DNA of 64,000 nt, taken from the sequence record OQ721909, one strand, 5' to 3'. The DNA comes from Escherichia phage vB_VIPECOOM01. The notes under the pieces are model-generated. The model saw only the letters and a program-made list of their open reading frames with translations. It was not told the DNA's origin and searched no databases. Positions 38,328-39,394 of the stretch are shown here, piece after piece. Position numbers and translations under genes: made by a program. Position 1 is the stretch's first letter; each line of letters opens with the position of its first letter.

Positions 38328-39188
38328 TTACACCGCCATTTTTCCTTTCAAGACACCATGGGACTGATAATCTTTGAGAACGAAATCTCGCGCTGTCATA
38401 TATTCAGTTAACCAATACATTTGAGTTTCAGTATCGCATTGACTGAATCCATTAGGCCAATTAATACTGAGTTTGCACAGGTCCATAGGGGTTCTATTTA
38501 ATATCTCTTTGCATTGCTCAATATGGTTAGAATAAATGTGTGTATTGCCGCCCGAGAATATCAAATCGCCCGGAACTAGTTCACACATGTCAGCAACAAT
38601 ATGTAAGAGAGCAGCATAGCTCGCGATGTTAAATGGAAGACCGAGGAAAACATCTACCGAGCGTTGATACCATTGGAGGTCAAGGTATCCGTTACGAACA
38701 TTAAACTGATAGAACATGTGACAAGGTGGTAATGCCATTTGCTTAAGTTCAGCTGGATTCCACGCTGACACAATTTGACGCCTATCGTTTGGAAATGTTT
38801 TAATACGATTAACAACTTCTACAATTTGGTCTACACCGCCAAAATCACGCCATTGTTTTCCGTAAATTGGACCAAGTTCACCACTATGATATCCTAAATC
38901 TTTTGCTTGATTTTCGTAATTTTCATCCCAAATCGTTTTTCCAGCAATTAAAGATCCATGAGTACGTTTACGTAGATCATTTACGTTAGTACTTCCTGAC
39001 AGAAACCATAGTAACTCAGAAATACATGCATTCCAAGCGAGCTTCTTAGTCGTTACTGCAGGAAAACCTTTAGTTAAATCCCAGCGTAATTTAGTACCGA
39101 ACAAAGCAATTGTTCCTGTGCCTGTTCGGTCATCGGTTTCGTAGCCATTTTCTAGAATATCTTTAATTAAAAATTGGTATTGTTGCAT
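38328..39188 (-). CDS. td: Thymidylate synthase, uninterrupted
   Basis: 286 aa from ATG at 39188 ([10 protein letters not shown]...); catalytic Cys in ALPPCHMFYQF; continuous ORF, so no group I intron. Confidence 0.93.
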   Translation of the reverse strand: MQQYQFLIKDILENGYETDDRTGTGTIALFGTKLRWDLTKGFPAVTTKKLAWNACISELLWFLSGSTNVNDLRKRTHGSLIAGKTIWDENYENQAKDLGYHSGELGPIYGKQWRDFGGVDQIVEVVNRIKTFPNDRRQIVSAWNPAELKQMALPPCHMFYQFNVRNGYLDLQWYQRSVDVFLGLPFNIASYAALLHIVADMCELVPGDLIFSGGNTHIYSNHIEQCKEILNRTPMDLCKLSINWPNGFSQCDTETQMYWLTEYMTARDFVLKDYQSHGVLKGKMAV

Positions 39189-39394
39189 TAGTTCATCCAA
39201 GAATATGTAGAAGGATATTTGGCAAAGTTAGGCTTATATCCTAATTTAGTCATTTGTTTTGCTTTGCGAGTAAATCCTAAAGAACGCTCACCTTTAAGAT
39301 ATTGTTTTGGTGTCATAGGCCCTTGATGCATCTGCCGACAAATAAAAAGGGCCATAGCATTAGGAACATCCTTAACTTTTAATTTATTGCTCAT
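39188..39394 (-). CDS. Hypothetical basic protein, 68 aa, inserted between frd and td
   Basis: ATG overlaps the frd stop (ATGA) and its stop overlaps the td ATG (TAATG); Lys/Arg-rich; not a gene I recognise. Confidence 0.6.

Follow-up and report, generated by a model that had tools for sequence, protein, structure and literature searches.

The morons of lambdoid phages carry their own promoter and terminator, and the genomes of T-even phages are known for their mosaicism. In phage T4, frd, td and nrd belong to one operon, which is transcribed prereplicatively. In T4-type phages, PeSL and ORFan cassettes, built with an early promoter and a stem-loop terminator, have been described in intergenic positions within hyperplastic regions (Arbiol, Comeau, Kutateladze, Adamia and Krisch 2010, PMC2839356). 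Here we characterize ORF68, an open reading frame (ORF) of 68 codons located between frd and td in Escherichia phage vB_VIPECOOM01; the sequence analysed, here called the window, is a stretch of 64,000 nucleotides from record OQ721909.

The reading that we favour, and regard as somewhat likely to hold as a whole, is that ORF68 is an accessory gene of the family phrog_9550 within the frd-td operon, which would be translated by coupling to its neighbours, bind a polyanionic partner, have spread recently between phages and have been lost from T4. Its coding status, distribution and junction anatomy, the three states of the site that it occupies and its recent lateral exchange are direct results of the comparisons presented below, and the translational coupling, the early or middle expression, the direction of the T4 difference and the binding activity are proposals built upon them.

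The frd-td junction of the window

All genes around frd and td are encoded on the minus strand, and the junction consists of the following features.

39391..39972, minus strand: frd, dihydrofolate reductase, 193 aa; 93.5% DNA identity to T4 frd
39391-39394, minus strand: ATGA overlap of the frd stop and the ORF68 start
39188..39394, minus strand: ORF68, 68 codons plus stop, encoding a basic 68-aa protein of phrog_9550; WFG78392.1 in OQ721911
39186..39200, minus strand: 3' end of ORF68 (..TGG ATG AAC TAA) followed by the td ATG, read from the sequence
38328..39188, minus strand: td, thymidylate synthase, 286 aa, without intron, from the sequence and the annotation of OQ721911

There is no intergenic DNA on either side of ORF68, only the two overlaps: the TGA of frd lies within the ATGA of the ORF68 start, and in TAATG the base 39188 is common to the TAA stop of ORF68 and the ATG of td. 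A reading of the window made from its letters alone (the sequence-only reading) had described a 68-aa ORF between frd and td with ATGA and TAATG coupling, and its coordinates and translation are exactly as quoted there; it gave no strand, and the gene lies on the minus strand. The same reading had named a direct overlap of frd and td in T4 and proposed an alignment of the junction. In NC_000866, frd runs from 145109 to 145690 and td ends at 145112, so that the two genes overlap directly in ATGA and ORF68 is missing, and the pairwise alignment of the window with the T4 junction gives one clean indel of 204 nt and nothing else. The ATG of ORF68 thus takes the same position as td initiation in T4.

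No strong Shine-Dalgarno sequence precedes the ATG of ORF68. A Shine-Dalgarno-like GGA(U)G lies about 7 nt 5' of the td ATG and is provided by the ORF68 codons UGG AUG AAC UAA; this GGAUG element within the end of ORF68 presumably serves as the ribosome-binding site of td. The GC content of ORF68 (34.8%) is similar to that of its surroundings. Over the tested stretch, the window shows no difference from Escherichia phage vB_VIPECOOM03 (OQ721911, Tequatrovirus vipecoom; 100% identity).

The end of frd itself varies. Its last codons, GTATATAAATGA in T4 and most relatives, match the T4 late-promoter core TATAAATA at 7 of 8 positions, and the window (39395-39404, minus strand) and phage JS98 carry GTATACAAATGA in place of GTATATAAATGA; the T4 equivalent lies at about 7110-7125 of locus L002.

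Coding status and expression of ORF68

Pairwise ratios of nonsynonymous to synonymous divergence (dN/dS, Nei-Gojobori) for ORF68 are 0.05-0.2, and its synonymous divergence (dS) is saturated, at 0.9-1.8, against Klebsiella phage Marfa and Enterobacter phage CIP9. Purifying selection on the gene is strong along its entire length, and every examined genome has an intact copy. Because these low ratios coincide with saturated synonymous sites, and because the product matches the phrog_9550 profile over its full length, the comparison indicates that ORF68 is a genuine protein-coding gene and not a chance frame.

The opposite view, that the 204 nt are an untranslated spacer or a regulatory RNA that stays open by chance, could draw on the shortness of ORF68, on its lack of a strong Shine-Dalgarno sequence and on its having been left unannotated in JS98. 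The dN/dS values with saturated dS effectively exclude a non-coding spacer, the protein family reaches 30-45% identity in unrelated phage groups, and the ATG stands exactly at the T4 td initiation position. An RNA or regulatory element was likewise rejected: no Rfam family reached threshold in the ORF68 region, folding of both strands gave no signal against shuffled sequences (z = -0.45 and +0.41), no promoter-like site on the strand of the gene was present within or flanking ORF68, the nearest ones lying 5' of frd, and no terminator-like site was present in 38200-41000. We therefore give the untranslated alternative only a negligible chance.

ORF68 lies within the prereplicative frd-td-nrdA nucleotide-precursor operon, with no promoter, terminator or spacer of its own. 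Since it lacks its own promoter and spacer, and since its start takes the td start position of T4, its translation most likely follows that of frd through termination-reinitiation coupling, and td would in turn be coupled to the ORF68 stop. By analogy with T4, expression would be expected in the early or middle period.

The ORF68 protein and its family

The predicted product has a mass of 7.9 kDa, a pI of 10.26 and a net charge of +11, with 13 lysine and arginine residues against 2 aspartate and glutamate residues, in keeping with the strongly basic protein that the sequence-only reading had described. It matches the phrog_9550 profile with E=5.2e-45, residues 1-68 aligning with positions 1-68, and it is 100% identical to the annotated CDS WFG78392.1, a hypothetical protein, in OQ721911. 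The number of GenBank phage genomes in which ORF68 is annotated is well above 100. It is therefore not a new object but an already catalogued one, phrog_9550 being a PHROGs family of unknown function. Members of this family include WFG78392.1, YP_009850431.1 (Marfa gp177) and AFU62604.1 (phAPEC8_0028, which also matches the profile, E=3e-39), from the Tevenvirinae, Marfavirus and Stephanstirmvirinae; they agree with ORF68 in length, basic charge and motifs (MSNKLKV.DVP, ..CR..HQG, KG..S.GF...A..M..LGY.P), and no difference was seen. Among 28 diverse members of the family, G40, M48 and G52 are invariant, and P11, R20, K34, L51, Y53 and P55 are nearly so.

No member of phrog_9550 has an assigned function or a solved structure, and the open-access literature yielded no paper naming phrog_9550, the ORF68 peptide, RB32ORF229c or a gene of the frd-td slot. 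Pfam and NCBIfam scans of ORF68, and Pfam scans of the 28 family members, gave no domain; the defence models of PADLOC-DB gave 0 families at E up to 1; and profile searches of PDB sequences gave chance matches at most. An AlphaFold2 model (mean predicted local distance difference test score, pLDDT, 80.9) places three helices at residues 13-24, 29-39 and 43-50, and the predicted fold had no match among solved structures. There is no significant sequence or structural similarity to a known helix-turn-helix (HTH) domain.

Annotation of the gene is inconsistent between records. It is unannotated in JS98 (EF469154, 144216-144419), and in the records of IME339 and Klebsiella phage EI it is cut to 42 aa by a start at an internal methionine. 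The labels 'DUF4858' and 'flagellar biosynthesis protein' that some records carry were discarded, as Pfam reproduces neither.

The high positive charge, together with the conserved lysine and arginine, suggests that the protein most likely binds a polyanionic partner, which may be a nucleic acid or an acidic host or phage protein. Nucleic-acid binding in particular, judged from the composition of the protein, is a tentative possibility to which we give clearly less than even weight. The sequence-only reading had offered nucleic-acid binding and anti-defence as examples of a role, and the searches, which matched no known sequence or fold, speak neither for nor against them.

Occupancy of the slot between frd and td

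When the T4 junction was used as a query, matches were interrupted by an insert of about 206 nt in some records and of about 415 nt in others. The shorter insert corresponds to ORF68, and the longer one is the phrog_1928 gene, known as RB32ORF229c in RB14, where it is noted as 'flanked by 9 bp repeat', and present in the slot also in RB32, T2, RB5, AR1 and Mosigvirus AlbertHofmann. A tblastn search gave 581 records with phrog_1928, and in 363 of these the identity is >=90%. The empty T4-type junction was counted with a probe of 60 nt that had the T4 junction at its centre and was run stringently enough to exclude half-matches; it occurs in 32 records that are 98-100% identical across the junction: T4 isolates, RB55, RB59, vB_EcoM_112, G28, F1, FN, HY03, SG1 and a few others. 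In the slot of E. coli T-even phages, phrog_1928 is present in about two thirds of records and ORF68 in about a quarter, these figures being counts of records and not of independent lineages. The empty T4 arrangement is thus a rare state among T-even phages: the textbook ATGA overlap of frd and td is a minority, at about 32 of roughly 530-570 records, and most records carry one of the two small genes.

The phrog_1928 gene (about 115 aa) resembles ORF68 in occupying the same slot, in having an unknown function and in being nearly identical across genera (94-100% at the amino acid level between Tequatrovirus and Mosigvirus), and it differs from ORF68 in its unrelated sequence, with no BLASTP match, in its lack of strong coupling to td, with a 45-nt gap in RB14, and in replacing the last frd codons. 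Some Klebsiella, Enterobacter and Serratia phages, namely Marfa, CIP9 and 4S, carry both genes. The copies examined are located as follows.

RB14 (locus L010), 1820-2167: phrog_1928 gene
AlbertHofmann (locus L011), 1733-2080: phrog_1928 gene
Marfa (locus L003), 2143-2496: phrog_1928 gene
CIP9 (locus L004), 1826-2504: phrog_1928 gene, duplicated in this phage
Serratia phage 4S (locus L005), 2124-2504: phrog_1928 gene

One record labels phrog_1928 'putative homing endonuclease', and Pfam gives no domain in support. In the record of Escherichia phage 132 (locus L012, 1711-2126), the annotation divides the insert of about 415 nt into two tiny ORFs, one on each strand. The same match pattern is seen in teqskov and ESh32, which encode an intact copy, so that this insert is probably a phrog_1928 gene that has degraded or gone unrecognised.

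The sequence-only reading had spoken of ORF68 as inserted between frd and td, which presumes a direction that the data do not favour. In the common ORF68 alleles, those of REP4, PYps35T, EC121 and C2-3, an AATGA direct repeat stands at each end of the 204 nt. With a slash marking the boundary, the REP4-type ends read ..TATATAAATGA/GCAAT... and ...GAACTAATGA/AACAATACC, and loss of one repeat unit from these alleles gives exactly the T4 sequence TATATAAATGAAACAATACC; in the same way, ..AAATGA/GCAAT...CTAATGA/AACAATACC minus one repeat unit equals the T4 sequence AAATGAAACAATACC. Because of these repeats, of the presence of ORF68 5' of td in distant genera and of the rarity and uniformity of the empty junction, the direct overlap of T4 may well be the derived state, probably produced by loss of 204 nt between two AATGA repeats. 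The alternative is a gain of ORF68 into an empty site, the gene being mobile by recombination.

Distribution and gene context of ORF68 homologues

A tblastn search found ORF68 in 236 phage records, 133 of them at >=90% identity (Tequatrovirus and Dhakavirus) and the rest down to 40-43% in phAPEC8-like Stephanstirmvirinae. Searches of 5.8 billion and 1.84 billion proteins returned a few dozen clusters, whose credible matches all measure 58-108 aa; hmmsearch against the 1.84 billion representatives gave about 10 real clusters, and a single eukaryotic match to the ORF68 profile was repetitive and was dismissed as a false positive. A scan of IMG/VR added just 9 further loci. Every homologue examined in its context belongs to a large phage genome or to a phage-like metagenomic contig. 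Neither tblastn against phages nor the profile search of the 1.84 billion representatives recovered a T4 protein, which bears out the earlier impression that ORF68 is unlike any protein of T4.

Within the T4-like phages, the ORF68 stop overlaps the td start, directly 5' of td, in every genus that has the gene: Tequatrovirus, Dhakavirus (JS98, IME341), Marfavirus, Kanagawavirus (CIP9) and Serratia phage 4S. Between frd and ORF68 there is one extra gene in Marfa and 4S and there are two in CIP9; these are phrog_1928 genes, with products of 111-126 aa. The homologues of phAPEC8-like phages and of four metagenomic myophage contigs lie in long arrays of small unannotated genes. The neighbours of homologues in six non-T4-like contexts included none common between groups, and since no neighbour is common to different phage groups, ORF68 is a self-contained single-gene module. 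The family is phage-only, and ORF68 would be a dispensable gene that acts as a solitary module.

A functional tie to the thymidylate synthase or deoxynucleotide (dNTP) complex, with ORF68 as a Td subunit, chaperone or regulator, or as a spacer cistron that sets the Frd:Td ratio, would account for an adjacency to td that holds across about 40% protein divergence, and the conserved C-terminal codons (..W-M-N/D stop), which give the GGAUG 5' of the td ATG, point the same way. Against this tie, the homologues of phAPEC8-like and other myophages are not beside td or nucleotide-metabolism genes, T4 and most T-evens lack ORF68 and couple td to frd directly or to the phrog_1928 gene, and gene order is generally conserved among T4-like phages, so that adjacency is weak evidence. 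We consider this explanation improbable.

Divergence of ORF68 and its flanks between genera

Between the window and Dhakavirus phages JS98 and IME341, ORF68 is 96-98% identical at the DNA level, and 96-99% identical between Tequatrovirus and Dhakavirus, whereas the figures are 77-81% for frd and 76-78% for the first 549 nt of td. The near-identity forms a tightly bounded island, which begins about 10 nt 5' of the ORF68 ATG and tapers off about 55 nt inside td.

39133..39404, minus strand: island of near-identity with Dhakavirus JS98 and IME341, about 97-98%, from segment identities, alignment and sliding identity
ORF68, Tequatrovirus against Dhakavirus: dS 0.05-0.14
frd, Tequatrovirus against Dhakavirus: dS 0.6-1.2
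td, Tequatrovirus against Dhakavirus: dS above 2, or saturated

The synonymous divergence of ORF68 between genera is therefore at least 5-fold, and typically more than 10-fold, below that of its flanks. Within Tequatrovirus, dS is 0-0.05 for ORF68, 0.1-0.2 for frd and 0.24-0.77 for td, the last in all pairs but PYps35T and C2-3, whose td 5' regions are identical. No such island was seen around ORF68 among Klebsiella and Enterobacter phages. A universal constraint at the nucleotide level was rejected as its cause, given the saturated dS against Marfa and CIP9 and the absence of an RNA fold or Rfam signal.

Since ORF68 is near-identical between genera while its flanks have diverged, in identity and in dS, the simplest reading is that this allele has recently spread by recombination among co-infecting E. 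coli T-evens, apparently into the same slot and across genus boundaries. The patchy distribution and this lateral exchange agree with the proposal of the sequence-only reading that ORF68 is an accessory gene. The spread may have been driven either by selection on the gene or by neutral mosaicism.

Selection would be expected if ORF68 were a counter-defence or host-takeover factor that binds and neutralises an acidic host protein or a nucleic-acid-based immune component, as a benefit on particular E. coli hosts would then drive a recent sweep through T-even genera. The gene is accessory and patchy and forms a single-gene module, the cross-genus island fits recent positive selection, and the homologues elsewhere reside in small early-type gene arrays, the typical home of such factors. 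The protein, however, has no similarity to any characterised one, a neutral recombination patch or hitch-hiking could yield the same island, and the unrelated phrog_1928 behaves alike in the slot, which suggests that the slot is simply permissive. On this evidence we rate a counter-defence or host-takeover role as rather unlikely. A bolder form of it, in which ORF68 is an effector with a new fold that sweeps the T-evens under positive selection and the slot is an 'accessory cassette port' with ORF68 and phrog_1928 as cargos, appears distinctly unlikely.

The island and the varying content of the slot also bear on the idea of a selfish element, such as a decayed free-standing homing-endonuclease gene, of which ORF68 would be the remnant or the DNA-binding module; its spread would then reflect homing-like gene conversion and not a benefit to the phage. 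Endonucleases of the seg, mob and intron kinds are plentiful in T-even genomes, and, as mentioned, one record gives the alternative occupant of the slot such a name. Pfam and NCBIfam detect no GIY-YIG or HNH motif or domain in ORF68, Pfam detects no domain of these or other kinds in it or in phrog_1928, and the window phage has no endonuclease gene within a distance of 4 kb. The purifying selection over all of ORF68 and its intactness in every genome examined also speak against a decaying gene, and 68 aa are too short for a nuclease plus a DNA-binding module, so that ORF68 is not of the free-standing homing endonuclease type. We hold the selfish-element origin to be very improbable. A link to the td intron and I-TevI was examined and rejected: both are present in PYps35T and EC121, the intron alone in C2-3, and neither in the window or REP4.

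Variation in neighbouring genes

Two genes of the window located between frd.1 and frd (39972-40573, minus strand) are missing from T4, which has a 71-nt gap there.

40214-40573, minus strand: 119-aa DUF7247 protein, Pfam E=1.5e-29
39972-40229, minus strand: acidic protein, pI 4.05, 81 aa in the annotation of OQ721911 and 85 aa in the ORF listing

At the same place, REP4 and EC121 have proteins of 111 aa and 81 aa, and PYps35T and C2-3 the 81-aa protein only. The fillers thus differ between related phages, which makes this place a second variable slot, located just 5' of frd. A relationship of the 119-aa protein to phrog_1928 was ruled out, as it belongs to DUF7247 and has no BLASTP match to phrog_1928 proteins.

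The td gene of the window (38328-39188, minus strand) is itself a mosaic: compared with T4 Td, amino acids 1-183, the equivalent of exon 1, are 90% identical and amino acids 184-286 only 61%, with a sharp boundary exactly at the intron/I-TevI homing position. In the window phage, judged from the same region of OQ721911 (locus L001, 47-1708 and 5620-8204), segG is missing between genes 59 and 32 and mobE is missing between nrdA and nrdB, although T4 has both; gp32 is annotated in OQ721911 just as 'hypothetical protein'.

Significance and comparison with known systems

Beyond the existing annotation, our analysis shows that the slot has three states and that the T4 arrangement is rare, and it adds evidence from synonymous sites of recent intergeneric transfer. 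These additions are useful and, given the known mosaicism of T-evens, unsurprising, and their practical value is modest. ORF68 is a reasonable candidate for functional screening, as it is under purifying selection, forms a single-gene module in at least two myophage lineages, has no recognisable fold and shows low dS relative to its flanks; the slot, which may be empty or hold ORF68 or phrog_1928, also offers natural isogenic contrasts. If the protein proved to be anti-defence or nucleic-acid-binding, it would represent a new family; otherwise it would be an ordinary accessory ORF.

Among small phage proteins, those of the HTH or three-helix kind (Cro, Xis and NinH type) resemble ORF68 in their length of about 70 aa, their high pI and the three helices predicted here, and in the model the conserved G40 lies between helices 2 and 3, as in small three-helix DNA-binding proteins. 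As a genetic unit, ORF68 is like the PeSL cassettes and morons in consisting of one small gene without a known function, which some phages have and their close relatives lack, and which moves by recombination. It is unlike them in having no promoter or terminator of its own, in overlapping both of its neighbours and in residing within a core metabolic operon.
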